A stretch of 64,000 nucleotides of DNA from Dictyostelium discoideum. Taxonomy: Eukaryota. Shown here piece after piece: positions 1 to 40,594 of the stretch. Below the pieces are notes generated by a model that saw nothing but the letters and a program-made list of their open reading frames with translations, made no database searches and was not told the DNA's origin. The stretch lies in contig CM000151.3 of assembly GCA_000004695.1 (NCBI GenBank), positions 3,616,001-3,680,000 on the forward strand, in the 5' to 3' direction. The translations under genes and the position numbers were made by a program. Position 1 is the first letter of the stretch. Each line of letters opens with the position of its first letter.

Positions 1-717
1 TTGTCTATTTGAATATTTAAATTTCGATTATTAAAGGTCAATAAACCAAAATTGTTTGGCGAATATGTGGGTTTTAAAAATGATGCTTTTAAAGAATAGT
101 TTGAATTTTGACCACTTTCAAACCCAAATGGCCAACTAAAGATATATTGAAAACCTAAATTCCATCTAAAATAAAATGAAAATGTTTCATACTGGGTATT
201 TGAATTGAATCCAAATGAAAACATTGTTGAGTTTAATGTTAAAGGTACTGATATTGGTTCAACAATGACATTTGGAAATGTAAAATTAAAATTATCTATT
301 CATTTTTTTAAAAAAAAAAATTAAAATAATGTCAATAGAAATTAATCTTTGATATATGTATATATTAAAAAGTAATTAAATTTAATTTTAACAAACTTAC
401 TAAAAACATTTAAATTTGGATCACTATAAATTGTTGTTAATGAGTTATTAATTTTTGCGAAAATAGAATATTGTGTATGAACTTGGCCAATGAATGTTGT
501 ACCTTTTCCTGGTATTTCATATGATGGAGTTGGAATATTATTTGTAATATCTTCAATAAATAATGGATCATATTCAATGGTTTCATTTAATGTAATAGAG
601 TAAACTGGTGAACAATTAATTCCAAATTCTTTAACATCAGTTTGGTTTGGGTAGATCTTAAATGTAATATCCTTTTCTTCTACATTCATTTCTTAAAATA
701 ATAATAATTTTAATATC

Positions 718-748
<31 letters not shown>

Positions 749-1105
749 ATTATTATACTTACTTGAAAAATATAAAAAAGGAATTGTAATATTTACAGTA
801 TATTGTTGATCTGAACTATCCAAGAATCTTATTGATATATTAAACTCTGATATTAAATTATTTTTATCAAATCCTACACCAACAAAGAATAAATTTGAAT
901 ATCCCTCTAAGCTCATTGCAACATTTGAAGGACTTGAAACATTTAGCAAATTTAGTGGATATTTTAAACCTGCAAAGTGTATTGTTGCTGTATAAGGAAA
1001 AAGTGTAAATTTATAATTGTTACTTGTTAAAACATTGACCTTCATCAATTCTCGAGGGATATCTATAAAATTGATATTAAAGTTAATTATTTTTTTTTTT
1101 TTTTT

Positions 1106-1150
<45 letters not shown>

Positions 1151-1571
1151 GTTTTATATACAAACATTCACAAGAATAAGTTATTGAGATATTTTTATAA
1201 ATAATTTGATCATTTTGCAATGTTGCATTTATTAATAATGTATAAGTATTTGGTGTTTTATTTTTAACTATAACTGTGGCAATTCCTCCATATTCTTTCT
1301 TATTGATTAGAGAGACTGTTGCATCTGTGTCATTGGTGAAAACCATCAAATTTGTTCCACTATTCGAGTAATCAACTATTGCAATCGAAAAAACATATGA
1401 ACAAATTTTTTGATTTGTTGAATCTGGGTATCTATTATAAGCACCTTCTTCTTGATTTGTAATATCATACAATTGAAACTGTCCTTCAACCCCAATTATT
1501 AAATTATTTATTGTTGAAAAGCTATTTATTATCGCCAATGTTAGGATTATCAATAAAATTTTCTTTATCAT
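1..1571 (-). CDS. Paralog 0 (5' part only; exon 5 lies left of the window) of the tandemly repeated large type-I membrane glycoprotein gene (Tgr/LagC-like, hypothesis). Exons about 1166..1571, 763..1062, 401..691 and 1..295.
   Basis: Signal peptide MIKKILLIILTLAIINSF starts at the ATG at 1571. Each exon ends in a GTAAGT-type donor one base past a codon (phase 1) and resumes after an (A/T)AG acceptor with the frame conserved. Bases 1-300 are near-identical to 5459-5760, which is exon 4 of paralog 1. The protein is collinear with paralogs 1 and 2. Confidence 0.5.
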
Positions 1572-1737
1572 TTTTTTTTTTTGTTTATTTAAACTTGCAA
1601 TAAGTTTTTTTTTTTTTATTAAAACAACAAAAAAAAAAAAAAAAAACTTGCCCTTTAGCAAACATTTTTTTTTATTTTTGCTTTTTTTTTTTTTTTTACG
1701 ATTTGCTGAGCTAATAAAAGATATTTAAAAAAAGATA

Positions 1738-1770
<33 letters not shown>

Positions 1771-2472
1771 AAATAAAAAACAAAAAAAAAATTTTGAAAT
1801 TCTAAGGGGCAAACAGAAAAAAAAAAAAAAAAAAAGACACAAAATTTCTTTTCGCTTTTATTACCAAACAAATTGGTGTCGTTTTGTTAAAAAAAAAAAA
1901 AAAAAAACAAAATATTGATGATTGTTTTTTATATATATTTTATAAGGCGGTTGTAAAAATTTTTGCATTAAAGTGTTCCTCTTTTTTTTTATTTTTTTTT
2001 TTTACTTTTATTTTTTTTATTTTCTGTGTAACTCCCCTTATTATTTTATCTTTTATTATTATTGTTATTTTTAAAAAAACAACATTCATCTAAATGATTG
2101 GTTCATTTTACTTGTTTTTTATTTTTTTTTTGGTTTTTTTTTTTCTTTTTACCAAATAATTGGTTTTTTGGTGTTGTTGATGAAATCAATTGCTTTTTCT
2201 TTCTACTAATCTTGATCCATTTTTTTGTTCTATCTCAAGCTAATTGATTATATAATTAATGGTGATTTTGTCTTTTTTTTTTTTTTTTAAAGATTAATTT
2301 AAAAAATAATAAAAAAAAAAAAATTAAAATTTTTTTTATATATACTTTTTTTTTCGAATTAAAAGTCCTGTTTTTATTTGTTTTTATCTTTTATTTTTTA
2401 TTTTTTATTTTTATTTTTTTTCCAAGATTTATAATTTAAATATTAGAATTAAATTAACTGATTAAGTAATTA

Positions 2473-5400
2473 TCAGTTAATTGTTTGTAATTTCTTTTGT
2501 ACTTTTCTTTGGAATTTTTTTGATTTTCTGTTTTTCACAACCAAGTAAACAACTGATACAATAACTACAGTGGCAAAAGCAATAGAACCAATAATAATAC
2601 CAGCGAGTTGAGCACTTGTTAGTTTTGATTTATTTGATGTACAAATTGAATTATTATCATTATTTGATACTGGTTTACTATCTACTAATACTGAAAAGTC
2701 TGGATCAATAATTATTGATTGTTTATAGTTTGGTATTGTAATACCAATGAATGATTGTGATACTGATGATGTTTGAATTGAGTTCATTTTTGAATCTAAT
2801 AATTGATTTTCAATTGAAGACACTTTTGAATCGATGATTGCTCTTTTAATGAATCTACCATAAAGTGAATGATCATCAATTTGAATTTTAAAGAAGTTTG
2901 AATTATCACCATCGCTTGTATCTCCAAATACTTTTAATGAACAAGTATCTTTGGAAGTTGATGATTCGAATAATGCTGACATTACAAGTTGAAGACTATT
3001 TAATTGTTTTAAAAATTTATATTCTGTAATTTCAATTGTATATTTAATACTTGATGGATTCATTGTTATATTATTATTTGCGAATTGAATAATTGTCGTT
3101 TGATTGAACCATTCTAAAGTTACAGTAATATTGGTTGTTAATGTATTTGTTGATTTTGTATCACCACTTTGAATACTTGTAAAGTATTGACTTTTAATAT
3201 TATTAATTGGTGTATAAATCCATTTATCAAATGTATATAAATTAACTTGATTTGAATTAAAATCTAATTCTCTTAATGATACAATTGAAATCAATGATTT
3301 GAATAAATAATTTGTACTATTTGATGTTTGATTATTGTTATCGATAATTGGTAATTCAGTTGATGGTTGTGATGTATTTGTTGATGGTTGTGGTATAATT
3401 ATAACTTGTGAATTACAATCATTACCAATCCAAGGTGGATAACAAATACATCCACTTGATGAACAAAAACCTTGTTTTGATCCACCACATACTGGTTCAC
3501 CTAAACATGTTTGTGGTTTATTCGTTGGCATTGGTGATGATGTAGGTATTGGTGTTTGTGTTGGTGTTGGATCTATAAAATTATAAACTATTGGATTGAC
3601 AGTGAATTCATTTGATGTGAGTGGTAGGTCTGAAACTTTGATAATGAATGGTTTATCGGTTGGTTTAATATTTTTAATAAAAATTGCACTCCAATAAACT
3701 GTAGTTGGTACTATTTGATTAAAGCTTGAGTCTCCTTCATATTTTACATATACTTGTTGCGTTGAATTGAAACATCTACCTGTTATCCATAACTCGCTAT
3801 CAAATGAATTAAATTTACTGCATTTTGTGATTTGTATTACTTTATTAAAAGTTATATTATTAATTGTATATATAAAAGATAAATTATTTAGTGATTCGCT
3901 TGAATATCCGCTATAATAACCGCCATTATTAATGAATCCATAAACACTGAAAATAATATCTGAATTGTATCCAAATCCTATTGGTAAATCGATAGTACAT
4001 GTATAGGTTGCAGCTGTTTCGTTTATTGAAATAATAGATGATACACATTCAAGTGTTTGTACTTCTATTGTTTCAATATAAACAACTGGATATTGTTTAT
4101 CTTTTAAACCACTTTCAATATCTACTGCTTCAAAGTTGAATGATAAGTATTGAGTACCATCACTATTTTGTTTTAATATTGGTATGAATGAAGTTAAAAT
4201 TGGTGGTGAACTATCGATACCATCATTTTCACCACTACATGTTTTATATACTTTATTTATTGTTGGATCTGATAAATAATTTATAAATACATTTTTAATA
4301 CCATCCATTTCACCAACTACATAAAATTCACCTGAAAAGCCTTGAGTATCATATAATTTAACTTGTGTGATAATATAATTTTGAGATGCACATTTACTTG
4401 GTAAAGTTATATTAATTTGATAATCACCATTAAATTTATCACCTCTTGTTAAATTTTGAGTTGTTAAATGGAATTTATAAGTTGAACTATCCATTTCACC
4501 TCTCACTATAATATCACCATAATCAAAACCATTAATTGGATCATCTATTGTAAATTTCCAACCAAATTCATTTGGTGAATTAATTTTTTCAATATTACTA
4601 AATATTGGTCCATACGCATCGAAATGTTTAGAAACAATAAATAGTTGTGATGATAAAGGAAACATATCATTTGTTATTGAAGATTGATAACCACACATTA
4701 AAAAGAAACTGAGTGGACCAGGTCTAGTGTTTGCAAGAACTGTAAATTTAATTTGATATTTTGAAATTGTTGAATTCCAAGTTGCAAACTTTAAACTATC
4801 GAAAACTATATTAGATTCTGTGGTATTACTATTTAAAATAAAAAGTGAGAATGAAGCTGAAGGATCACTATGGGCTTGAGTACCATTATAATTGAAATAA
4901 ATTATATTATCAACTGATTTATTTGCCACATCAATATAATTTTTTAAAAATGTAATATTTTCTATTAAAACAGGTAATATTGTTGGAGCTTTATAATCTA
5001 TAACTGAAAATGGATTAATTGAAAAATAACTATTTACATAATAAACTTGACTCTTTTTAAAAGTTGAATCTCCAATAGATAAAACTGAAAATCCACGCCC
5101 TTTAAAATCATAAACAATTTCATATATATTATTTTCAGCATCTACCAATGATTCTTGTCTATATATTGCATTTGCATCATCATTAATTTGAATGAAAAGA
5201 TTATAACCAATCTCTTTATATGTTGGTTTTATTTTAATTATTAATAAATGAAATTGTTCAAAAAGGTATATAACTTTACATGATTCTAATTCTAATGGTA
5301 GTAATGATGAATTTATCGCTATTTTTAAAAATATTTTTTAATGTTAGTACTTGTTTGTGTGTGGGGTGTGTGTGTGTGTTATTCAGTAGTAGTTTAGAAT

Positions 5401-6976
5401 ATTAATGATTATATATGTATATTAGAATATTAATGATTATATGTATATATACTTACTATTGTCTATTTGAATAATAAAATTTTCATTATTAAAGGTCAAT
5501 AAACCAAAATTGTTTGGCGAATACGTGGGTTTTAAAAATGATACTTTTAAAGAATAGTTTGAATTTTGACCACTTTCAAACCCAAATGGCCAACTAAAGA
5601 TATATTGAAAACCTAAATTCCATCTAAAATAAAATGGAAAAATTGCATACTGAAAACTTGAAGTGAACCCAAATGAAAACATTGTTGAGTTTAATATTAA
5701 AGGTAATGATACTGGTTCAACAATGACATTTGGAAATGTAAAATTAAAGTTTTCTATTCATTTTTTTTTAAATAATGTCAATAGAAATTAATCTTTGATA
5801 TATGTATATATTAAAAAGTAATTGAATTTAATTTTAAAAAACTTACTTGAAACATTTAAATTTGGGTTACTATAAATTGTTGTTAATGAGTTATTAATTT
5901 GTGCGAAAATAGAATATTGTGTATAAACATAACCAATGAATGTTGTACCTTTTCCTGGTATTTCATATGATGGAGTAGGCATACGACGTGAAACATCTTC
6001 AATAAATAATGGATCATATTCAATGGTTTCATTTAATGTAATAGAGTAAACTGGTGAACAATTAACTCCAAGTACTGTAACATCGGTTTGGTTTGGATAG
6101 ATCTTGAATGTAATATCCTTTTCTTCTACATTCATTTCTTATAATAATAATAATTTTAATATCTTATTTTTTTTTTTTTAAATTTAATTATTATACTTAC
6201 TTGAAAAATAAAAAAAAGGAATTGTAATATTCACAGTATATTGTTGATCTGAACTATCCAAGAAAAGTATTGATATATTAGACTCTGGTACAAAATTATA
6301 TTTATTAAAATCTACACTAACATATAATAAATTTGAATAAAAATTATTTATGTTTATCCAAGAAGGACTTGAAACATTTAGATAAGATATTTGATATTTT
6401 AAACCTGTAAAGTGTATTAATGTTGTATAAGGATTAATTGTAAATTTATAATTGTTACTTGTTAAAACATTGACCTTCATCAATTCTCGAGGGATATCTA
6501 TATAAAATTGGTATTGAAATTAATTAATTATTTATTTTTGTTTTTTTAATTTTAAATTTTATATACAAACATTCACAAGAATAAGTTATTGAGATATTCT
6601 TATAAATATTTTGACCATTTTGCAATGTTGCATTTATTAATAATGTATAAGTATTTGGTGTTTTATTTTTAACTATAACTGTGGCAATTCCTCCATATTC
6701 TTTCCTAATGATTTGATAGACCATTGCATCTGTATCATTGGTGAAAACATTCAAAGTTGCCCCACTATTCGAGTAATCAACTATTGCAATCGAAAAAACA
6801 TATGAACAAATTTTTTGATTTGTTGAATCTGGGTATCTATTATAAGCACCTTCTTCTTGATTTGTAATATCATACAATTGAAACTGTCCTTCAACCCCAA
6901 TTATTAAATTATTTATTGTTGAAAAGCTATTTATTATCACCAATGTTAGGATTATTAATAAAATTTTCTTTATCAT
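2473..6976 (-). CDS. Paralog 1, complete: 5-exon gene for a type-I membrane glycoprotein of about 1380 aa with signal peptide, N-glycan-rich ectodomain, PT-rich linker, EGF-like Cys module, TM and short basic tail (Tgr/LagC-like, hypothesis). Exons about 6571..6976, 6201..6497, 5847..6137, 5457..5753 and 2473..5318.
   Basis: The ORF-track entries 6524..6976, 6184..6483, 5788..6135, 5437..5682 and 2473..5148 join in frame through GTAAGT/GTTTGT donors and TAG/AAG acceptors with phase 1 throughout. The four introns are 70-140 nt and AT-rich; intron 4 carries a (GT)n tract. The C-terminus is ...CLGEPVCGGSKQGFCSSSGCICYPPWIGNDC (EGF-like), then a TM (LAGIIIGSIAFATVVIVSVVYLVV) and the tail KNRKSKKFQRKVQKKLQTIN. 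Confidence 0.6.
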
Positions 6977-7205
6977 TTTTTTTTTTTAAAAAAAAAAATA
7001 AAAAAAAAAAAAAAAAAAACGTTCCCCATTTTTTTTTTTACGATTTGATAAAGATATTTATAAAAAGATATTTATAAAAAGATATTTTAAAAAAAAAATT
7101 AAAAAAAATATTTTTTGAATTTCAAGACTACCTCACAACAAAATTTCATTGTTTTTATTTTTTATTTCTTTTTTTTGATCCCAACAAACACATTATAAAT
7201 GGTAC

Positions 7206-7252
<47 letters not shown>
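7206..7252. repeat. (AAT)n microsatellite, about 16 units
   Basis: A perfect AAT/ATA trinucleotide run, read directly. Confidence 0.9.
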
Positions 7253-7253
<1 letters not shown>

Positions 7254-7774
7254 TGTTTAATTTATTTAATTTCTAATACTAACATAAAATTTGTTTGGTA
7301 GAGTTGGATCTGGAATAAAATCATTTATGTTTTATTTGTTGAAGATTTTGTTTATTTAGTCCAAAATACCTTGTTTAGTTGTTATAAATCCATTAGCTTG
7401 AAGACTTGGCATAATATGACTTGTGTTTGGATTTTGTTGTATTAGTTGTGAATTCATCAGATTGAAGACTTGGCATAATATGATTTGTGTTTGGATTTTG
7501 TTGTTGTATTAGTTGTTGTTGTGCTTGTATTAGTTTTTGTTGTGTTCCTAATGTTGCTAGTAGTTGTTTGCATTGACATTGTTCTTTTTTAGGTTGATTA
7601 CAACCTCTACAAATGTATACCATTTTTTGTTTAGTAATAATTTAGCCAAATAAAAAAATAAAAAAATATAATAAAAAAAATCAAAAAAAAAAATTTTGGT
7701 TATTGAATTTTCTATTGTGCCTTTTTTTAATAATTAATTTTGAAAAATTTTAGTAAAATATATTTTTTAAAAAA

Positions 7775-7808
<34 letters not shown>

Positions 7809-8282
7809 AAACAAAGAAAAAAAATAAAAAAATTTAAAAAAAAAAATAATATAATATAAAAAAATATAAAGCAGTTATTCATTTTTAATTAAATTACCAA
7901 ATAAAGAGTTTTAATTTAAAGGATTAAACAAAAATCAATCAATAGGTTTATTTAAATGTAAAGTAGTTATATTTATATTATCAAATAAAGAATTTTAATT
8001 TTAAAGTAATAAACAATAAACAATAAACAATAAAAAATAATAAATATGTTTATTTATTTTAATTTTAAAATGCACAATAAATTTCTTTATTTAATTTAAA
8101 TTATGGAACAATGAATTTTAATTTATAAAAAAAAAAAAAAAAAAAAAAAATCACCAATACACAGAGAATAATAAAATAAAATTATTTGTTGATATTATAA
8201 TAAAAATGATAAAAAATATTAAATTAATTTTAAATATTAATATCTTTTTTTTCATTATTATTTTCCTTTGTTATATAAAGGA

Positions 8283-8636
8283 ATTTCCTTTATAAGTGAT
8301 TCGCTTGAATATCCGCTATAATAACCGCCATAGTCAATATTGGTCCATATTCATTGAAATGTTTAGAAACAATTAATAGTTGTGATGATAAAGGAAACAT
8401 ATCATTTGTTATTGAAGATTGATAAGTACTAATTAAAAAGAAACTGAGTGGATCAGGTCTAGTATTTGTAAGAACTGTAAATTTAATTTGATTTTTTGAA
8501 ACTATTGAAATATATATTAGATCATATCTGTATTACTACTATTTAAAATAAAAAGTGAGAATGTAGCTGAAGATCACTGTGGCCTGAGTATCATTATAAT
8601 TGAAATAAATTATATTATCAACTCCTATTAAGATTT
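8283..8636 (-). pseudogene. Degenerate, internally deleted fragment of the large glycoprotein gene (matches paralog 1 around 3893-3930 joined to about 4600-4925)
   Basis: About 85-90% nucleotide identity to two non-adjacent segments of exon 5. It contains indels and frame breaks and has no flanking exons. Confidence 0.55.
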
Positions 8637-8882
8637 AAAAATAAAAAATTTAATATTTAAAAAAAAAAAAAAATATTTTCAAATAATTTTTTTTTTTTTT
8701 TTTTTTAAATCCATAATTTTAAAAATATTTTGACACATACACCATATCGATGAATCATTACATCAAAATACCTTAGTAAGTTTTTTTTATTTTTTTATTT
8801 TTTCAATTTGTTTAAATAATTAATTTTTATTAATTATATATATATACTCAAAATGATAAATTTTATTTAATTTTTAAAAATA

Positions 8883-9275
8883 TTTCATCACCAAATAGAC
8901 AAGAAAGATATGAAGCAGTTAAATGTGTTAGAGAAATTTTATCTGATGGTAAGTTTTTTATTTTTATTTTTTTTTTTTTTTAATTGACTTTTTTTTTTTT
9001 AAATTGACTTTTTTTTTTTAAATGACTTTTTTTTTTTTTTTTTTATTATTTATTATAAAAAAAAGATAATAATCCACAAATTGATAGAGTTATTAGTTCA
9101 GGGTTAGTACTAATTTTACATAGATATTTAGTTGATGAAACAGATACTTCAATTCAATACGAAGCATCATGGGCATTAACAAATGTTGCATCAGGATCTT
9201 CAAAACATACAAATTATATTGTAGGGAATGAAATTCATAATTCTGTATTAAGTAAGGCAATTGCAGAGTTGAGGC
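8883..9275 (+). pseudogene. Importin-alpha (karyopherin alpha) pseudogene fragment covering ARM repeats 1-2, in inverted orientation relative to the rest of the gene
   Basis: The + strand translates to ...ISSPNRQERYEAVKCVREILSDG, then GTAAGT, then ...KDNNPQIDRVISSGLVLILHRYLVDETDTSIQYEASWALTNVASGSSKHTNYIVGNEIHNSVLSKAIAEL. This is the canonical importin-alpha ARM2 motif (FEAAWALTNIASG...). The last 28 bp (9248-9275) recur inverted at 10020-10047. Confidence 0.55.
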
Positions 9276-10050
9276 ACCACAGATAGCCTTAGCAATAGCG
9301 CAGGTGGCTTCAAGTTTTGTTCTTAAATTGATCGATGAGTTTTTACCGGTTTCAATAGCTCTTTTAAGCAAACATTCGTCTATGACTCTTTGGACTTGAT
9401 CTGTTGGACCATTGGTAATATATAATAAAAAATAATAACCTCACGTCACCAATGCTTCTGATGGTGATGATAAGATTTTAGGAAACACTTTCAATACATT
9501 ACATTGTAACAAATACTCTATAACGTCATAGAAACCTGAAAGCATATTACCAATTGTATTGAATCCGTATTTAATACAATCTTTTTGATCTGATTCGAAA
9601 ATGATTTCAATGATAACCTCAACCAATCCCATAGATATAATATTGTCAAAGATCTCATGCTCTTCATTGGTTGATTCGGTCAAGCATGATAATGCCCACA
9701 ATGCTTCTGATATGACATCAGCTTCTTTATGCCAAGTTAAGAGCAACTCTTTATTGATGGTAATAGTGGCTTAACGAGTCTAAATTCAGTACGTGGTACA
9801 CCACGACATAGATTTTTAATGACCCAAGCTACATTTGAAACTAGTGATTTCTTTGAATGAGTTTTCAATATTTCTATCAAATGTAATACTATACCTTAAT
9901 TGAGTACACTATCTCTATTTTGGAATGAATCACCAGTGATATTACCTAATGTCCAAATGTTTTGTTCTAAAAGATCAACATCATTACTAGTTGACATTAA
10001 ATCAATTATACTCTCAACTCTGCAATTGCCTTACTTAATACAGAACGATT
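9250..10050 (-). pseudogene. Importin-alpha pseudogene body (ARM3 to about ARM8) on the minus strand, with an in-frame TAA and frame shifts
   Basis: The minus strand reads ...NRSVLSKAIAEL / DLMSTSNDVDLLEQNIWTLGNITGDSFQNRDSVLN*GIVLHLIEILKTHSKKSLVSNVAWVIKNLCRGVPRTEFRLVKPLLPSIKELLLTWHKEADVISEALWALSCLTE...GFNTIGNMLSG...TNGPTDQVQRVIDECLL...KLEATCAIAKAI. This is collinear with importin-alpha (WALGNIAGD, TWTLSNLCRG, CWALSYL, RAIGNIVTG, KEATWTMSNITAG). It is interrupted by a TAA where a Tyr is expected and by frameshifts near 9441 and 9900. Confidence 0.5.
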
Positions 10051-10925
10051 GTCTTGAATGTTTGAAACAGAATTATTCAGCATCTAAAGCTCGAAAAAAT
10101 TCTTTTTATTACTATTTGGAGGGCATTGCCAAAATATTAAATATTGTCAAAAAACATACCAAAGAAACAAACTGTTTAAAACTTTTCAACACTTTTATCG
10201 ATGGTCAATTCTTTGATAATTTACTCGATGATTCCAATTCTTGTGAACGAGAATTTGTTGAAGGTTACTCAACAATCAGCGATGAATTTGATGAGTTGAC
10301 TCAAGTGGTTCAACAAATTGAACCTAAAAATTCAAAGGGTGAAGATGTAAATGAAGTTAATTGTGAAAAATCTGCTGAAAAAGCTTCTGATTATGAAGAT
10401 GATATTGCTAAATTATATGAAATGAAACTTAATGAATAAAAACAAAATAAAATAAAATAAAATAAAATAAATAAATTTCAATTGGAAGATTTTTTATTTC
10501 CAGTCTGTTAAACATGTTGAACTGTTAAAACTATTAAACCTGATAAACCTACCAAACGATCCTGTGCCAAAGATTGGAGAGAATATAAATCTATCTATAC
10601 ACTATGACATTAGGAATGGTTTAATATTTATTAACACTTCAACAACAATAAAAATAAAAAAATTTAAACATCATCATTTTTAAATATTGGAAAAATTTTA
10701 ATAATTTCAAATAAATAATAAATGTGTGGGTAAACCTAATTAATTTGTTTTTAATTTTTTTTTTGTTGAACCACTACAGTAGAAATTTTTTTTTTTACAT
10801 ATACATAAGAAAAGACAAATAAATAATAAGTAAATGCATAAAGAAATTTTTAAAAATTAATAAAAAAAATAATAATTTTTATTTTCCAAGATTTTTAATT
10901 AGAATATTTGAATTAAATTAACTGA

Positions 10926-13900
10926 TCAGTTCATTTTTTGTAATTTGTTTTGTACTTTTCTTTGGAATAAATCTGATTTTCTGTTTTTCACGACCAAGTA
11001 AACAACTGATACAATAACTACAGTGGCAAAAGCAACGGAACCAATAATAATACCAGCGAGTTGAGCACTTGTTAGTTTTGATTTATTTGATGTACAAATT
11101 GAATTATTATCATTATTTGATACTGGTTTACTATCTACTAATACTGAAAAGTCTGGATCAATAATTATTGATTGTTTATAATTTGGTATTGTAATACCAA
11201 TGAATGATTGTGATACTGATGATGTTTGAATTGAGTTCATTTTTGAATCTAATAATTGATTTTCAATTGAAGATACTTTTGAATCGATGATTGCTCTTTT
11301 AATGAATCTACCATAAAGTGAATGGTCATCAATTTGAATTTTAAAGAAGTTTGAATTATCACCATCACTTGTATCTCCAAATTCTTTTAATGAACAAGTA
11401 TCTTTGGAATTTGATGATTCGAATAATGCTGACATTACAAGTTGAAGACTATTTAATTGATTTAAAAATTTATATTCTGTAATTTCAATTGTATATTTAA
11501 TACTTGATGGATTCATTGTTATATTATTATTTGCAAATTGAATGATTGTCGTTTGATTGAACCATTCTAAAGTTACAGTAATATTAGTTGTTAATGTATT
11601 TGTTGATTTTGTATCACCACTTTGAATACTTGTAAAGTATTGACTTTTAATATTATTAATTGGTGTATAAATCCATTTATCAAATGTATATAAATTAACT
11701 TGATTTGAATTAAAATCTAATTCTCTTAATGATACAATTGAAATCAATGATTTGAATAAATAATTTGTACTATTTGATGTTTGATTATTGTTTTCTATAA
11801 TTGGTAATTCAGTTGATGGTTGTGATGTATTTGTTGATGGTTGTGGTATAATTATAACTTGTGAATTACAATCATTACCAATCCAAGGTGGATAACAAAT
11901 ACATCCACTTGATGAACAAAAACCTTGTTTTGATCCACCACATACTGGTTCACCTAAACATGTTTGTGGTTTATTCGTTGGTATTGGTGATGATGTAGGT
12001 ATTGGTGTTTGTGTTGGTGTCTCTGTTGGTGTTTCTGTTGGTGTTTCTGTTGGTGTTTCTGTTGGTGTTAAGGGAATCGTAAAATTATAAACTATAGGAA
12101 TAACAGTGAATTCATTTGATGTGAGTGGATAGTCCGAAACTTTGATAATGAATGGTTTATCAGTTGGTTTAATATTTTTAATAAACATTGCACTCCAATA
12201 AACTTTATTTGGTACTATTATTTGATTAAATCCAGGTTCTCCAAAATATTTTACATATACTTGTTGTTTTGTTGAATTGAAACCTCTACCTGTTATCCAT
12301 AACTCGCTATCACCAGATACAAATTTGCTACAGGTATTAATTTGTATTACTTTGTTTATGGATATATCGCTCATTGAATATATAAAAGATAAACTATTTA
12401 GTGATTCGCTTGAATATCCGCTATAATAACCGCCATTATTAATGAATCCATAAACACTGAAAATAATATCTGAATTGTATCCGAATCCATTTGGTAAATT
12501 GATAGTGCATTTATAGGTTGAAGTTGTTTCATTTATTGAAATAATAGATGATACACATTCAAGTGTTCTTAAATCTGTTGTTTGGATATAAACAATTGGA
12601 TATTGTTTATCTTTTAAACCACTTTCAATATCTACTGCTTCAAAGTTGAATGATAAGTATTGAGTACCATCACTATTTTGTTTTAATATTGGTATGAATG
12701 AAGTTAAAATTGGTGGTGAACTATCGATACCATCATTTTCACCACTACATGTTTTATATACTTTATTTATTGTTGGATCTGATAAATAATTTATAAATAC
12801 ATTTCTAATACCATTAAATCCACTGGATACTGAAAATTCACCTAAATAACCTTGAGTATCATATAATTTAACTTGTGTGATAATATAATTTTGAGATGCA
12901 CATTTACTTGGTAAAGTTATATTAATTTGATAATCACCATTAAATTTATCACCTCTTGTTAAATTTTGAGTTGTTAAATGGAATTTATAAGTTGAACTAT
13001 CCATTTCACCTCTAACTATAATATCAGCATAATCAAAACCATTAATTGGATCATCTATTGTAAATTTCCAACCAAATTCATTTGTTGAATTAACTTTTTC
13101 AATATTACTAAATATTGGTCCATATTCATCGAAATGTTTAGATTCAATAATTAATTGAGAAGATAAAGGTAAGAAATCACTTATTAATGAACTTGAATAA
13201 CCACAAAGTAAAGCAAAACCAAGTGGACCAGGTCTAGTATTTGCAGGAACTGTAAATTTAATTTGATATTTTGAAATTGTTGAATTCCAAATTGAAGTTG
13301 TAATATTATCATAATCTACGACTCCAGTTACTTTAAACTCATGAGATAAAATTAAAAATGAGAAATTAATTGTATCATCTTTAGGTTCTTGAGTACCATT
13401 ATAATTGAAATAAATTATATTATCAACTGATTTATTTGTTACATCAATGTTATTTATTAAATAAGTTACATTACCAATTAAAACTGAAATCATATCAGAA
13501 TATTTAAAATCAAGTTTTAAAAGTGGATCAATTGAATAATATTGAAATGGATTATAAAATTGAGATTGTCTTGAATAAGAATCACCAATATTTAAACTAT
13601 TTAATATACCTTCATGAAAATTTAAAACAGTTTCATATATATTGTTTTCGATATCAGGCATTGAGTCATATCTTAATACTTGATTAACATTATCATTAAT
13701 TTTAATAAAAGTACTGTACCCTTTACTTTGATAAATTGGTTTTATTTTAATCTTAAATAAATAAACTTGATTATATAAATGAGTAGAATTAAATGATTCT
13801 AATTCTAATATTGGTAATGTATTTATATCCACAACTATTATTTATAATAAAATTATTTTAATTAATATAATAATTTTATTAAATAATAATAAAAAATAAA

Positions 13901-15044
13901 AAAAAACAATTACCTTGTTGATTACTAATTTGCGTTAAAGAATGATCTTGATTGAAATAAAGTGAGTTGTAGGGATTTACAGAGATTTCAGATTGTAGAA
14001 ATGATGACTTGAATGAATAATTTGAATTATGACCACTTTCGAAACCAAAAGGCCATTTATAACTATTTGAAAAACTTTCAAACCATCTAATTGAATAATT
14101 GAATAAATCAAATTTTTTAGTTGAATTAAATTTAATTGAAAATATTGATGAAAGTGAAGGTAATGGTGGTGAATAATCAATTTGAAAAGATGGAAATTTT
14201 CTATCAATATTATCTATATATTTAAAAAACAATAATAATAATATTATTAAAATTATTAACAAAAATGATTTTTTAAAATAATAAAAATAAACAATAATAA
14301 AAAAAAATAATAATAATAATAATAAACTTACATGAGACCTTTAAAAATTGATAATAAATTGTAGTTAAGGTGCCATTAATTTGAGCACCAATTGAATAAT
14401 CGGAAGAAACTTGACCAAGGAATGTTGTACCTTTTCCTGGCATTTCATAAGATGCCCATGGATTTAAACCTATATTTTCATTAATAAACAATGGGTCGCT
14501 TAATCCAATTGTTTCATTTAATGTAATAGAATAAATTGGTGGACAAATAAATCCAAATTCTATAACATTTGTTTGATTAGGATAAATTTTAAATGTAATA
14601 TCCTTTTCTTTTACATTTGAATCTGAATTTTTAAAATTATAATTTAATATATTAATTTTTAAAATAATAATAATAATAAAAACAATAATAATAATAACAA
14701 TAATTACTTACTTGAATAAATTAAACTTGGAATTGTATAATTTAATGAATAAGTATTATTTGAACTATCCATGAACCATAGTGATATATTAAAATCTGGT
14801 TTAATAAATCCATTAAATTCGTCACCAATATGATAGACAAATGGCCTTATATTATCAACTTTTACATTATACGGTTTGTCAACTTGTAATTGACCCAATG
14901 GGTATTTTAATCCTGTAATGTACATTATTGTTGAAAATGGGTAAATTGGATGCTTATATTTACCAGTATGATATAAATTTATTTTCATTGATTCTCGTGG
15001 AATATCTATTTAATTTATTTAATTATTTAATTAATTATTTATTT

Positions 15045-15103
<59 letters not shown>

Positions 15104-15521
15104 CTTAAAAAAATAATCAATACAAACATTGACAAGAATAATTAATTATAATACTACTATAAATTGATGTATCATTATCATATTCTGCCGTAATTAATAA
15201 TGAATAATCATTTGGTGATTTAGTATTTACATAAATTGGAAGAACTTGACTTGAAATATTTTTAAATGCTGGTGTTGAAATTGTTGCGTCTGAATCGTTG
15301 GTTTTTATTTTTAATTGAACTCCAGTATCTGAAGTATCGGTTACAAATATTAAGAAAAAAAAATTACAATATTTGTCATTTGTATTTGTTGGATATTTAT
15401 TATATGAGTATTCTTCACTAGAAACATCATAAATTTGAATTGCTGGATTTCCTTCAACCCTAAAAATTTGTAATATTACTATTATTATTAGAATTAATAA
15501 TAGTATTCGTTTTCTGATCAT
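10926..15521 (-). CDS. Paralog 2, complete: 5-exon type-I membrane glycoprotein gene of about 1400 aa. It is the most divergent N-terminus of the three, and its PT-rich stalk is expanded to PTETPTETPTETPTETPTQTP. Exons about 15128..15521, 14712..15005, 14332..14623, 13916..14213 and 10926..13834.
   Basis: Signal peptide MIRKRILLLILIIIVILQIF. Exon junctions: ...caacaag|GTAATTG...aataatag|TTGTGGAT (in frame), ...tctcat|GTAAGT, ...ttcaa|GTAAGT. The start of the 'ORF' 10926..13832 is a GTG artefact of the ORF caller. The 3' 1.1 kb is about 97% identical to paralog 1 (2473-3600). Confidence 0.6.
12013..12066 (-). repeat. 12-bp coding minisatellite (GGTGTTTCTGTT)n, encoding (PTET)n in paralog 2; the paralog-1 equivalent has a single PTPTQTP
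   Basis: Four to five tandem 12-mers, read directly. There is a length difference between paralogs at the homologous position. Confidence 0.8.
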
Positions 15522-37220: not shown

Positions 37221-40200
37221 GATGTTATCAAAAGGTAGAGATGTTTCAGAAGCATTTCCTCAAGTTGTAAAGAATGTAATTGTAAAGAATTTAGAGATTA
37301 AGAAATTAGTATACATGTATTTAGTTCATTATGCAGAGAGTCAAAATGATAGTGCATTATTGTCAATTAATACCATTCAAAAGTCATTAAATGATCAAAG
37401 TCAAGTGATTAGAGCATCAGCATTGAGAGTTATGTCATCAATTCGTGTTATTGATATCATTGAAGTGATTATATTGGCAATTGAGAAATCTGTTAAGGAT
37501 ACATCACCATTTGTTAGAAAGGCCGCTGCTTTTGCAATTGCAAAAGTACATAAATTGGATTGTGATAAACAAGAGCCATTAATCGACCTATTGGAAATAC
37601 TCTTAAATGATACAAGTACAATGGTATTAGGTGCTGCTATCGTCGCTTTCAATGAACTTTGTCCACAACGTTTTGATCTCCTTCATCAACATTATAGAAA
37701 AATTTGTCAATTATTAGCTGATTTCGATGAATGGTCACAAGTAATCGTACTTGATATTCTTACAAAATATGCAAGATCACAATTTAGATGTCCTGATTCA
37801 ACAATGGTAATTATTAAAAAATAAATATATTAATAATTTAATTTTAATTTTGAAAGGTACTAATCTTTTTTTTAAAAAAAATAAATAAATAAATAAATAC
37901 TACCACTACCACTACCACTACCACTACCAGTACCACTACCACTACCACTACCACACCACTACCACTACCACTACCACTACCACTACCACTACCACTACCA
38001 CTACCACTACCACTACCACTACCACTACCACTACCACTACCACTACCACTACCACTACCACTACCACTACCACTACCACTACCACTACCACCATCATACC
38101 ATAATCACTATCACTATCACTATCACTATCACTACCACCATCATACCAGCATCACTACCAATAGTACTACCAATACTAATACTAAATTTAAGAATGATAA
38201 AAATATTAAACAATTTAAAAAGAAATCAAAATCATTTTATTCAGATGAAGAAGATCAAGAAGATGATGAACCAGAAAATAGTTTATATAAAAAGAAACCA
38301 TTAGAAAGAGATATGTTTGATTCAAGTGAAGAGATTGATATGGATCATAGATTATTATTAAAATCAACATTACCATTATTACAGAGTAGAAATAATGCAG
38401 TAGTGATGGCAGTAAGTTCATTGTATTTCTATTGTGCACCATCGATTGAAGCACAAAAAGTTGGTAAATCATTAGTTCGTATTTTACGTAGTGGACCAGA
38501 AGTACAATACATTACATTGACCAACATTTCCACTATGGTAACATTGAGACCATCAATGTTTGAACCTCATTTATCAGAGTTTTTCATTCATTCATCTGAT
38601 CCAGAGTATAGCATCAAATTGAAATTAGAGATATTGACTCGTTTAGCAACACCTGAAAATATTGGTAAAATCTTGAAAGAGTTCAAAGAGTATGTAAAGA
38701 ATGAAGATAAGAAATTCGTTGCAGCCACAATTCAAGCGATTGGCTCCTGCGCCTCTACAGTACCAGATGTAACCGAATCATGTATCTATGGTTTAATGTC
38801 CCTCCTATCCAATCAATCAACTGTTGTAGTTGCAGAGAGTGTAATTGTTTTAAAAAGATTATTACAATTGAATGCAACAAATGAAAAACTTGAGAAATTA
38901 GAAAAAGAAAAAGAAAAAGAAAAAGATGTCAAAGAAAATCAATCAACCATTTCAAAACATTCATCATCAAATAATTCAATTAAATATGATAATATAATTT
39001 TACATTTATCAAAACTATTAGATACACTTCAAGTACCAAGTGCACGTGCATCAATCGTTTGGGTAATTGGTGAATATTGCTATCGTGTACCATTGGTTGC
39101 ACCAGATGTATTTAGAAAATTAGTTAAATCATTCTCTGATGAACATGAATCTGTTAAATTGGAAACCTTAAATTTAGGTTCAAAATTATATGTTCAATTC
39201 ACTGATAATAATAGTACTACCACTACTGATAATAGTATACCAAATGAATTTAAAAATGAAAGAACTAAAGAAAAGATCACCTTAATGTTTCAATATGTTT
39301 TAAATTTAGCAAAATTCGATCAAAACTATGATATTAGAGATAATAGTAGAATGTTAAAACATTTCTATTTCAATACTGAGAATACTCAATCCATCAATAG
39401 TAATATCAAACAAATCGTTATCAATCAAAAACCAATTCCAACTGAAACTTCAATAAGTGAAGATAGACAACGTTTTACACTTGGTTCATTATCACATATC
39501 GTTAATCATACTGCTTTAGGTTACACCGCATTACCTGATTTCCCTGATGTTGCCCCTGATCCATCAGTTAGAGAACCAATTCAACGTTGGATTCCAAATC
39601 AACAATCACAACAACAACAACACCAACAACAACAATTAAATAATATTTTCGTTGATACTCCATTTTATTCTGATGAGGAAGAAGAAGATGAGGAGGAGTA
39701 TGATGAGGAGGAAGAGGAAGAAGAATATGAAGAACAAAATGAATATGAAGATTTCTTTGGTGAAGAAAAGAAAAATAAAAAGAAAAATAGAAAACAACAA
39801 AACTATGATGAAGATGAATATAATCAAGATATTGATGATGGTGAATATGATGGTGAAGGTGAAGTTCAAGCAGAGGATGAAGATGATTTCGATGAATTAT
39901 TTGGTATAACTAATGACGATAACAATCAAACCGCTAATGGTATTGGTGGTGGTGGTAGTGGTGAGGAAGAAATGGATAAATTTGATTTTGAAAATTATAT
40001 AAACTCCACTACCAAATCTGTAAAGAAAATATTATTAAAACCAACAATTAGTGGTGGATTAAGTATTGATTATTGTTTCATTAGAATCAGAGATAATGAA
40101 GAATTTTCATGTCAACCACGTTATAATATCATTCAATTAAATATAAAGAATCAATCTGATGAAACTTTCACCGATATCTCTATCATTAATAAAAATTTAA

Positions 40201-40594
40201 TCGATGGTGCTGATATTAGTGAATTTGATCCAATCGAATCAATTGAACCAAATCAAGCAATTCAAAAACAAATTTATGTTTTATTTAATTCAACTTCTCA
40301 ATCTTGTAAATTTGAAATTAGGTAAATTTTTTATTTTTTTATTTTTTTATTTATTACTTTTGAAAATTAAATACAAATATTAATTAAAAAATATATATAT
40401 TTTATTATTATCATTATAGCTTTAATAAAGGTAATTTCCCAGTAACTTTAACACCAATTATTGGTGAATTATTAATACCAATTGTACCAATTTATGAATC
40501 AATTAGTCAATGGAAAGATGAATTTGAAGAAGTTGGTGAATTTAAACAAGTTGATGATCAATTTGAATTTGGTGATCAATGCTTAGATAAATTA

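Follow-up and report, generated by a model that had tools for sequence, protein, structure and literature searches.

The enlarged spacer between the second and third genes of a ComC-like gene array on chromosome 2 of Dictyostelium discoideum has as its main component, as shown below, a non-processed pseudogene of the importin-alpha-like gene DDB_G0277993, and the middle of this gene copy lies inverted between the arms of a perfect 33-bp repeat. Taken as a whole, the reading of this DNA as a dead importin-alpha-like gene copy with an inverted middle is in our judgement very probable. The sequence analysed (the window) is a stretch of 64,000 nucleotides from an AX4-type strain, with a G+C content of ~22%, and coordinates are window positions unless another locus is named. 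At the left end of the window, three genes with about five exons apiece (units 1 to 3) are arranged in tandem on the minus strand; they encode 'EGF-like domain-containing' membrane proteins of ~1,380 amino acids (aa) with the Pfam domains ComC_SSD, DUF7035, DUF7034, DUF8390 and DUF7949. The unit 2 start codon (6974-6976) and the unit 3 stop codon (10926-10928), both on the minus strand, are separated by 3,949 bp, compared with 901 bp between units 1 and 2. An initial annotation of this DNA was right that the spacer is enlarged, but the excess is ~3.0 kb and not the 3.9 kb that it gave; in a self-comparison, the other paralogue junction was seen to lack the block.

A complete dead gene copy spans positions 8743-10497, and its parts, together with their blastn matches to the parent gene locus of strain ACTFIR (L001), are listed in Table 1. 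In tblastn analysis the AX4 parent protein (P0082) tiled the window in three pieces, with residues 11-106 on the plus strand, residues 103-361 on the minus strand and residues 351-524 on the plus strand; the 11-residue overlap in this tiling is the 33-bp duplication. When the inversion was undone, the product was colinear with importin-alpha ARM domains through both junctions (4uae_A, E=5e-50). Residues 6-367 of this reconstructed product were aligned by phmmer with residues 24-374 of importin alpha-3 in the PDB, where the 60 best matches listed were all importin alpha, and hmmscan detected the Pfam Arm domain with E=3.5e-19. Two separate importin fragments had been described in the initial annotation, one with ARM1-2 on the plus strand (8883-9275) and one with ARM3-8 on the minus strand (10050-9250). 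The ARM1-2 sequence was confirmed at approximately 8855-9240, and minus-strand ARM sequence was found at 10012-9274, although it extends from ARM3 to early ARM9; instead of two fragments there is one whole gene copy, the last third of which (10046-10439, plus strand, to the TAA) had been overlooked. The retention of both introns shows that the copy is a DNA-level duplicate, and a retrocopy (processed pseudogene) origin was rejected for the same reason. Inspection of the sequence after the end of homology at 10497 revealed no poly(A), and an exact-protein look-up of the 179-aa plus-strand open reading frame (ORF) for further haplotypes found none on record.

The parent gene in AX4 is DDB_G0277993, which encodes P0082, and the corresponding ACTFIR locus occupies L001 10001-11775. 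The closest proteins are intact products of 512-527 aa in D. discoideum, D. cf. discoideum, D. citrinum and D. firmibasis, which are 57-69% identical to the pseudogene; at the protein level the pseudogene is 67-69% identical to DDB_G0277993 orthologues, but only ~31% identical to canonical importin alpha. The parent locus is unlinked: it lies outside the family array, on another contig or chromosome, where it is flanked by an ETF gene on one side and a very large gene on the other; a kinase gene is located further upstream. The hmmscan search found no importin-beta-binding (IBB) domain (PF01749) in the reconstructed product, P0082 or P0004, whereas the canonical control P0005 scored 101 bits, and Arm_3 (PF16186), present in the same control, was detected in neither P0082 nor P0004. 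In the parent, ARM1 is preceded by just ~25 residues. Canonical importin alpha was rejected as the parent on account of the ~31% identity and the missing IBB domain, so the earlier designation 'importin-alpha pseudogene' holds for the importin-alpha-like ARM homology but not for the parent, which is an IBB-less paralogue and not the canonical gene. By eye, the Trp/Asn ladder of the parent reads WALTN, WALGN, WTISN, WCLSN and WAIIN, and the pseudogene keeps the Trp/Asn of ARM2-4 and has YFLLY and CAIAK in ARM7-8.

Other features of the parent were also observed. The protein (~520 aa) ends in a long acidic tail, its homologues were found solely in the D. discoideum/citrinum/firmibasis group, and it evolves fast, the D. 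firmibasis protein being ~73-75% identical to those of the other three species. The middle of the ACTFIR parent gene (L001 ~10700-11300) is enriched in G+C (coding GC 0.342 versus 0.305-0.309 in the other three aligned sequences), and this gene has 37 lineage-specific third-position changes; the enrichment might reflect biased gene conversion or introgression. A literature search for DDB_G0277993, for the small-ORF gene model DDB_G0272803 described below, or for a Dictyostelium importin-alpha pseudogene found nothing.

The two ends of the inverted segment are marked by a perfect 33-bp inverted repeat (9241-9273 and 10013-10045), for which 100 shuffles yielded no chance matches. In the right-arm orientation the repeat encodes STLQLPYLIQN, which aligns with ARM9 ('RKDQVAYLIQQ' in importin alpha-3 and 'SSPQLLYLIQN' in the parent). 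In the parent the 33-bp sequence occurs a single time (L001 ~11257-11289), and breakpoint 1 is spanned without interruption. The arrangement can be written as L - d' - M' - d - R, where d is the 33-bp sequence and primes denote inverted segments; the M-d and d-R connections are native, and the L|d' and M'|d junctions are new. No microhomology was detected at L|d' (9240/9241), and 2 nt are shared at M'|d (10012/10013), where the first two bases of the right arm (CT) constitute the microhomology with the end of the inverted segment. No parent base was lost at the inversion junctions; an apparent 1-nt loss at breakpoint 1 was rejected because the 'missing' G is base 10013, which is part of the 2-nt microhomology with the repeat arm. 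Both breakpoints are in unique coding sequence, and self-comparison uncovered no other repeats there; neither transposons nor pre-existing repeats are present at these sites. The inversion breakpoint with a short inverted duplication that the initial annotation had proposed was confirmed, as was the inverted repeat at the junctions, except that the repeat is 33 bp in length and not the 28 bp placed at 9248-9275 and 10020-10047.

The gene copy carries several disabling lesions. The ATG is gone, having been situated inside a ~33-bp deletion relative to the parent, and the acceptor AG of intron 1 is mutated to AA. The TAA at 9896-9898 replaces a Glu that is encoded by GAG or GAA in all parent orthologues, and the TGA at 9441-9443 takes the place of the Glu in 'KEG(Y/F)W', a conserved motif. 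A 1-nt deletion follows 9747, and the acidic tail has undergone in-frame deletions. The TAA and a frameshift on the minus strand had been recognised previously, but the TAA was thought to replace Tyr, and the list was incomplete in that the TGA, the lost ATG, the lost intron-1 acceptor and the exon-1 remnant were overlooked. Rescue of the ORF by intron modelling was rejected since the stops and the frameshift are colinear with the parent coding sequence, and the uninterrupted importin-alpha ORF that would have contradicted the initial annotation did not emerge when introns were modelled. The pseudogene-specific substitutions number 62/42/33 at codon positions 1/2/3, whereas those of the functional lineages number 13/7/37 (D. 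discoideum parent) and 29/20/59 (D. citrinum). This lack of codon-position bias indicates that the pseudogene decays neutrally. Automatic annotation of an independent assembly of a near-identical strain (L003, GCA_054883475.1) includes a 158-aa 'Arm' gene model at 1589-2145, which corresponds to 9997-9441 on the minus strand of the window; given the stops, the frameshift and the neutral pattern, this model on the inverted piece is almost certainly spurious.

Over 11.6 kb, the L003 assembly differs from the window by one single-nucleotide polymorphism and four homopolymer-length differences, and it is base-identical over 8650-10925, both junctions included, from which we conclude that the structure is not an assembly artefact. 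Strain variation, which the initial annotation had suggested checking, was examined by comparing the orthologous junction (SRP14 - family gene - spacer - family gene). The full block is present in the 3,949-bp spacer of the AX4-type sequences (the window and L003). In ACTFIR (L006; spacer 2,506 bp) only the parent-derived 3' flank remains, the coding sequence having been deleted, and ~1 kb of unrelated DNA is present, while the spacer of ACTFIW (L002; 1,215 bp) retains, besides some adjoining scraps, the final 39 bp of the pseudogene's coding sequence, in which pseudogene-specific bases occur. No block content was found in D. cf. discoideum (L004; 660 bp) or D. citrinum (L005; 450 bp). The outgroup spacers without the block show that it is a derived insertion, and the remnants in ACTFIR and ACTFIW show that the insertion is older than the divergence of the three D. 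discoideum strains. The pseudogene has been deleted independently in two D. discoideum strains, and the AX4 type alone keeps it.

In a tree with D. firmibasis as the outgroup (1,000 bootstraps), the pseudogene formed a clade with D. discoideum and D. cf. discoideum that excluded D. citrinum with 100% bootstrap support, and the three possible orders within this trio received 64.5%, 25% and 10%. The pseudogene shares 32 of the 41 derived states of the common stem, but only ~21-25% of the states derived in either species. The two repeat arms are identical at 33/33 positions, yet 3-4 pseudogene-specific substitutions are common to both, arguing that the inversion was secondary to the duplication. 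By a crude bound the inversion falls within the last ~36-46% of the time since duplication, and the copy was probably already dead when it was inverted. The initial annotation had viewed the inversion as a footprint of the rearrangements that build such arrays, and this view is not upheld: the inversion is inside the pseudogene and younger than the duplication, and the two-gene core of the array pre-dates both the insertion and the inversion inside it, so that the inversion is not a by-product of array building. The relic of family exon 5 in the spacer (see below) is the only component of the block that bears on array turnover.

A ~1.8-kb DNA-level copy of the whole DDB_G0277993 transcription unit, which took along both introns and flanks of ~50-75 bp (upstream) and ~60 bp (downstream), arose after the D. 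citrinum split, around the separation of D. discoideum and D. cf. discoideum; it landed between two family genes and then decayed neutrally. After duplication, in roughly the last third to half of the time that the copy has existed, its middle 739-772 bp would have been inverted. One double-strand break, in ARM2/3, would have been blunt and a second, in ARM9, staggered by 33 nt; fill-in of the overhangs would then have been followed by end joining that reconnected the ends in inverted order, using 0 nt of microhomology at one junction and 2 nt at the other. As an outcome, the 33-bp segment would stand on either side of the inversion, once in each orientation. Most of the block was later deleted in other strains. 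The inverted structure itself is read directly from the DNA, and we infer its timing and mechanism; taken alone, the staggered-break mechanism is probable, with considerable room for doubt.

Several points weigh against this explanation. Divergence from the orthologue consensus is 15/279 (5.4%) in the 5' colinear part, 88/630 (14.0%) in the inverted part and 35/289 (12.1%) in the 3' part, and the 5' part is thus 2.2-2.6 times less diverged (Fisher p 1e-4 versus the inverted part and 0.005 versus the 3' part), a difference not expected if one duplication had been followed by neutral decay at a uniform rate. GC content was considered as the cause and does not explain the difference; the 5' part may have undergone gene conversion by the parent at a later time. 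The duplicate may be slightly older than the split between D. discoideum and D. cf. discoideum (64% bootstrap), in which case its absence from the latter needs loss or lineage sorting. An un-inverted pseudogene haplotype was not found among the D. discoideum strains and outgroups compared, and the ancestral order is deduced from the parent only. The lack of function of the block is likewise something that we infer. Finally, a staggered break, a template switch and a two-step route all give the same final sequence.

Template switching during replication, either by fork stalling or by microhomology-mediated break-induced replication, would produce the inversion and the 33-bp overlap in one error. 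The 2-nt microhomology (CT) at 10012/10013 fits this mechanism, which is also known to give inverted segments with short duplications, but the 9240/9241 junction is without microhomology, there are no extra templated insertions and no copy-number gain beyond 33 bp, and the parent sequence is tiled exactly, as expected from simple breakage and rejoining. We therefore regard template switching as unlikely. The two-step route, in which a 33-bp inverted copy of ARM9 sequence was first inserted at ARM2/3 and homologous recombination between the arms then flipped the middle, reversibly, accounts for the same end structure, with perfect 33-bp arms located exactly at both junctions. It is quite unlikely, because two rare events are called for rather than one, arms of 33 bp offer little length for ectopic recombination, no such repeat exists at breakpoint 1 in the parent, and the intermediate haplotype was not seen, although only AX4-type strains retain the region.

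Could the block be functional, either as a spliced ARM-protein gene or as a source of antisense RNA or small interfering RNA (siRNA) directed against DDB_G0277993 or the flanking family genes? The automatic 158-aa gene model and the perfect 27-nt and 24-nt stretches that the inverted part shares with the parent would be in keeping with such a function. Nevertheless, it is highly improbable: the substitution spectrum is without purifying selection, the Trp/Asn of ARM7-8 are lost along with the start codon and the splice acceptor, two stops and a frameshift are present, those two stretches are the only perfect ones of >=21 nt shared with the parent, and the pseudogene is deleted in two of three D. 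discoideum strains. We likewise give very little credence to the more specific possibility that read-through from a retained promoter stub, carrying ~770 nt antisense to DDB_G0277993, serves as a strain-specific antisense RNA or siRNA regulator; if it did, the low divergence of the 5' part might reflect continued sequence exchange with the parent or constraint from it. It is likely that none of the block is functional. The least credible alternative is that the inversion is an assembly artefact or that the plus- and minus-strand pieces came from two different copies, for although the region is AT-rich, repeat-laden and hard to assemble and the divergence of the 5' part differs from the rest, the homopolymer differences elsewhere show that the junction-identical L003 assembly is independent, and the parent coordinates abut with no gap at breakpoint 1 and an overlap of exactly 33 bp at breakpoint 2, a fit that pieces of separate origin would not show.

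Table 1. Features of the spacer between units 2 and 3 and matches of the pseudogene to the ACTFIR parent locus (L001)
Feature	Position	Strand	Basis and remarks
Exon-1 remnant	8743..8775	+	pairwise alignment to parent locus L001
Retained intron 1	8776..8854	+	alignment to parent; GTAAGT donor kept, acceptor AG changed to AA
Exon 2 (DKFYLIFKNISSPNRQERYEAVKCVREILSD)	8855..8948	+	translation, alignment, tblastn
Retained intron 2	8949..9065	+	alignment to parent
Exon 3, first part, ARM1-2, up to inversion breakpoint 1	9066..9240	+	blastn, tblastn
Left arm of the 33-bp inverted duplication	9241..9273	-	perfect inverted repeat; minus-strand reading continues the inverted segment (STLQLPYLIQN, ARM9); extra relative to parent
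Inverted middle of exon 3, ARM3 to early ARM9	9274..10012	-	blastn in reverse orientation; two stops and 1-nt deletion
Right arm of the 33-bp duplication, native orientation	10013..10045	+	repeat and alignment; contiguous with 3' gene part
Exon 3, last part, ARM9-10 and shortened acidic tail, to conserved TAA (10437-10439)	10046..10439	+	blastn, tblastn
Parent-derived 3' flank, end of duplicated segment	10440..10497	+	blastn, alignment
Match to L001 10005-10511	8744-9240	+	blastn, 82.5%
Match to L001 11289-10511	9237-10014	reversed	blastn, 77.8%
Match to L001 11263-11613	10023-10371	+	blastn, 79.8%
Match to L001 11714-11836	10378-10497	+	blastn, 85%
Whole spacer between units 2 and 3 (3,949 bp)	6977..10925		open reading frame list
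Ancestral spacer part, promoter-proximal upstream region of unit 2	6977..7160	-	homology with orthologous junctions
Tandem duplication, 64-bp unit (7376-7439 / 7440-7503)	7376..7503		repeat family D10, 88% identity; 56/64 bases identical
Small Cys-containing ORF, AX4 hypothetical protein DDB_G0272803, 76 aa	7393..7623	-	exact match to P0080
Family exon-5 relic, family-gene orientation, with stop codons	8295..8623	-	blastn self-comparison
D. discoideum-specific spacer DNA	10498..10875		in L006, partly in L002; not found in L004 or L005

The remainder of the spacer was examined in the same manner. Homology with the orthologous junctions of all strains and outgroups extends to 7095-7170. The small ORF that follows overlaps a tandem duplication for which the initial annotation had given a 50-bp unit; the period is in fact 64 bp. 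As 64 is not a multiple of 3, the tandem duplication shifts the frame of DDB_G0272803. The sole other homologue is a 108-aa version in ACTFIR (P0081), which has a single 64-bp copy and no duplication; the ORF is truncated in ACTFIW and absent from the sister species, and an exact-protein look-up of DDB_G0272803 for further haplotypes found none on record. We regard DDB_G0272803 as the degenerate allele of an orphan ORF that varies among strains rather than as a conserved gene; probably it is no real gene at all. The idea that the small-ORF region had been inverted between strains was rejected: ACTFIR has two opposite copies of the ORF start, and ACTFIW kept the other one. The second, inverted copy in the ACTFIR spacer lies at L006 9628-9600. 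The ~1 kb of unrelated DNA in that orthologous spacer occupies L006 8790-9630, and an apparent small Cys-rich signal-peptide ORF is found there on the minus strand (L006 ~8860-9040).

The internally deleted pseudo-copy of exon 5 that the initial annotation had placed at 8283-8636 is present, with slightly different limits (Table 1). According to blastn, its larger piece (8336-8623) matches unit 2 exon 5 at 4601-4915 with 82% identity and its smaller piece (8295-8331) matches 3890-3926 at 37/37 positions, ~670 bp having been lost between the two. The translation is interrupted by stops and has 52-60% protein identity to the local paralogues, of which the unit-2-type copies are the nearest. The relic is the leftover of a partial copy of a family gene. 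Between the small ORF and the relic, at 7887-8150, an AT-rich unit of ~57 nt (CAAATAAAGARTTTTAATTTAAAG...) occurs three times in diverged form, at spacings of 84 and 123 bp; part of this stretch is also found in ACTFIW. A search of the block for tRNA genes and for Rfam non-coding RNAs found none, the lone match being a sub-threshold SNORD57 inside a family exon.

The array itself varies in copy number and spacing among D. discoideum strains (window 1-15521; L002, L003 and L006). The AX4 type has three family genes ahead of a Dicty_CAD gene, ACTFIR has two family genes and two CAD genes, and ACTFIW has at least three family genes with short spacers. The best match of unit 3 in other strains is a protein that is just 95% identical, and no AX4-labelled protein matches unit 3 (exon 5 at 10926-13832) at 100%, the best AX4 match (81%) being unit 1; the unit 3 ORF is intact in the window, and a 1,395-aa model was annotated in L003. 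The AX4 protein set may lack unit 3 and perhaps unit 2, or may model them differently. Elsewhere in the window, a weak ARM/HEAT-type tblastn match to the parent protein (E=0.003) at 37222-40325 is unrelated to the spacer finding; judged by eye, this region resembles an adaptor-complex beta-subunit gene.

In sum, this spacer of a ComC-like array consists of probably non-functional DNA that is polymorphic among strains, and it is a hotspot of structural change among D. discoideum strains (1.2, 2.5 and 3.9 kb, versus ~0.5 kb in sister species). An ordinary duplicated pseudogene occupies this unstable stretch of DNA together with a paralogue relic and a degenerate orphan ORF, and current understanding is unchanged by them; the inversion scar is one interesting detail of otherwise ordinary genomic debris. 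For annotation, the value of these results is that the locus should be marked as a DDB_G0277993 pseudogene.

With importin alpha (karyopherin alpha), the gene copy shares colinear homology over about nine to ten ARM repeats, and, judged by eye, the Trp/Asn pairs of the major (ARM2-4) and minor (ARM7-8) sites at which importin alpha binds nuclear localisation signals seem to be preserved in the parent. Unlike importin alpha, both the pseudogene and the parent are without the N-terminal IBB domain and the C-terminal atypical Arm_3 repeat. The copy resembles other non-processed pseudogenes in being a DNA copy from another locus that has introns, short flanks, disabling mutations and no codon-position bias; it differs from typical ones in its internal inversion, and in comprising almost exactly one transcription unit, which is more usual for retrocopies. 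Pseudogene-derived sources of antisense RNA or endogenous siRNA are known in mouse oocytes. The copy is similar to these in that one segment is inverted relative to its own promoter-proximal part, so that read-through could in principle hold parent antisense sequence, but it is dissimilar in having ~78% identity to the parent with two perfect stretches of >=21 nt, and in that the block is deleted in other strains. A close parallel to the inversion scar is found in Drosophila, where inversions accompanied by an inverted duplication of single-copy breakpoint sequence, in some cases at one breakpoint only, led to the proposal of the staggered-break model, the shortest duplication being 46 bp (Ranz et al. 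2007, PMC1885836). The small resolved inversion described here, with its inverted end duplication in a social amoeba, supports the view that staggered break-and-rejoin is not peculiar to flies. As in the Drosophila inversions, an inverted duplicate of non-repetitive sequence derived from one breakpoint is located at both ends, although those are chromosomal inversions and the present one is a 0.77-kb inversion within a dead gene, with a duplication of 33 bp.

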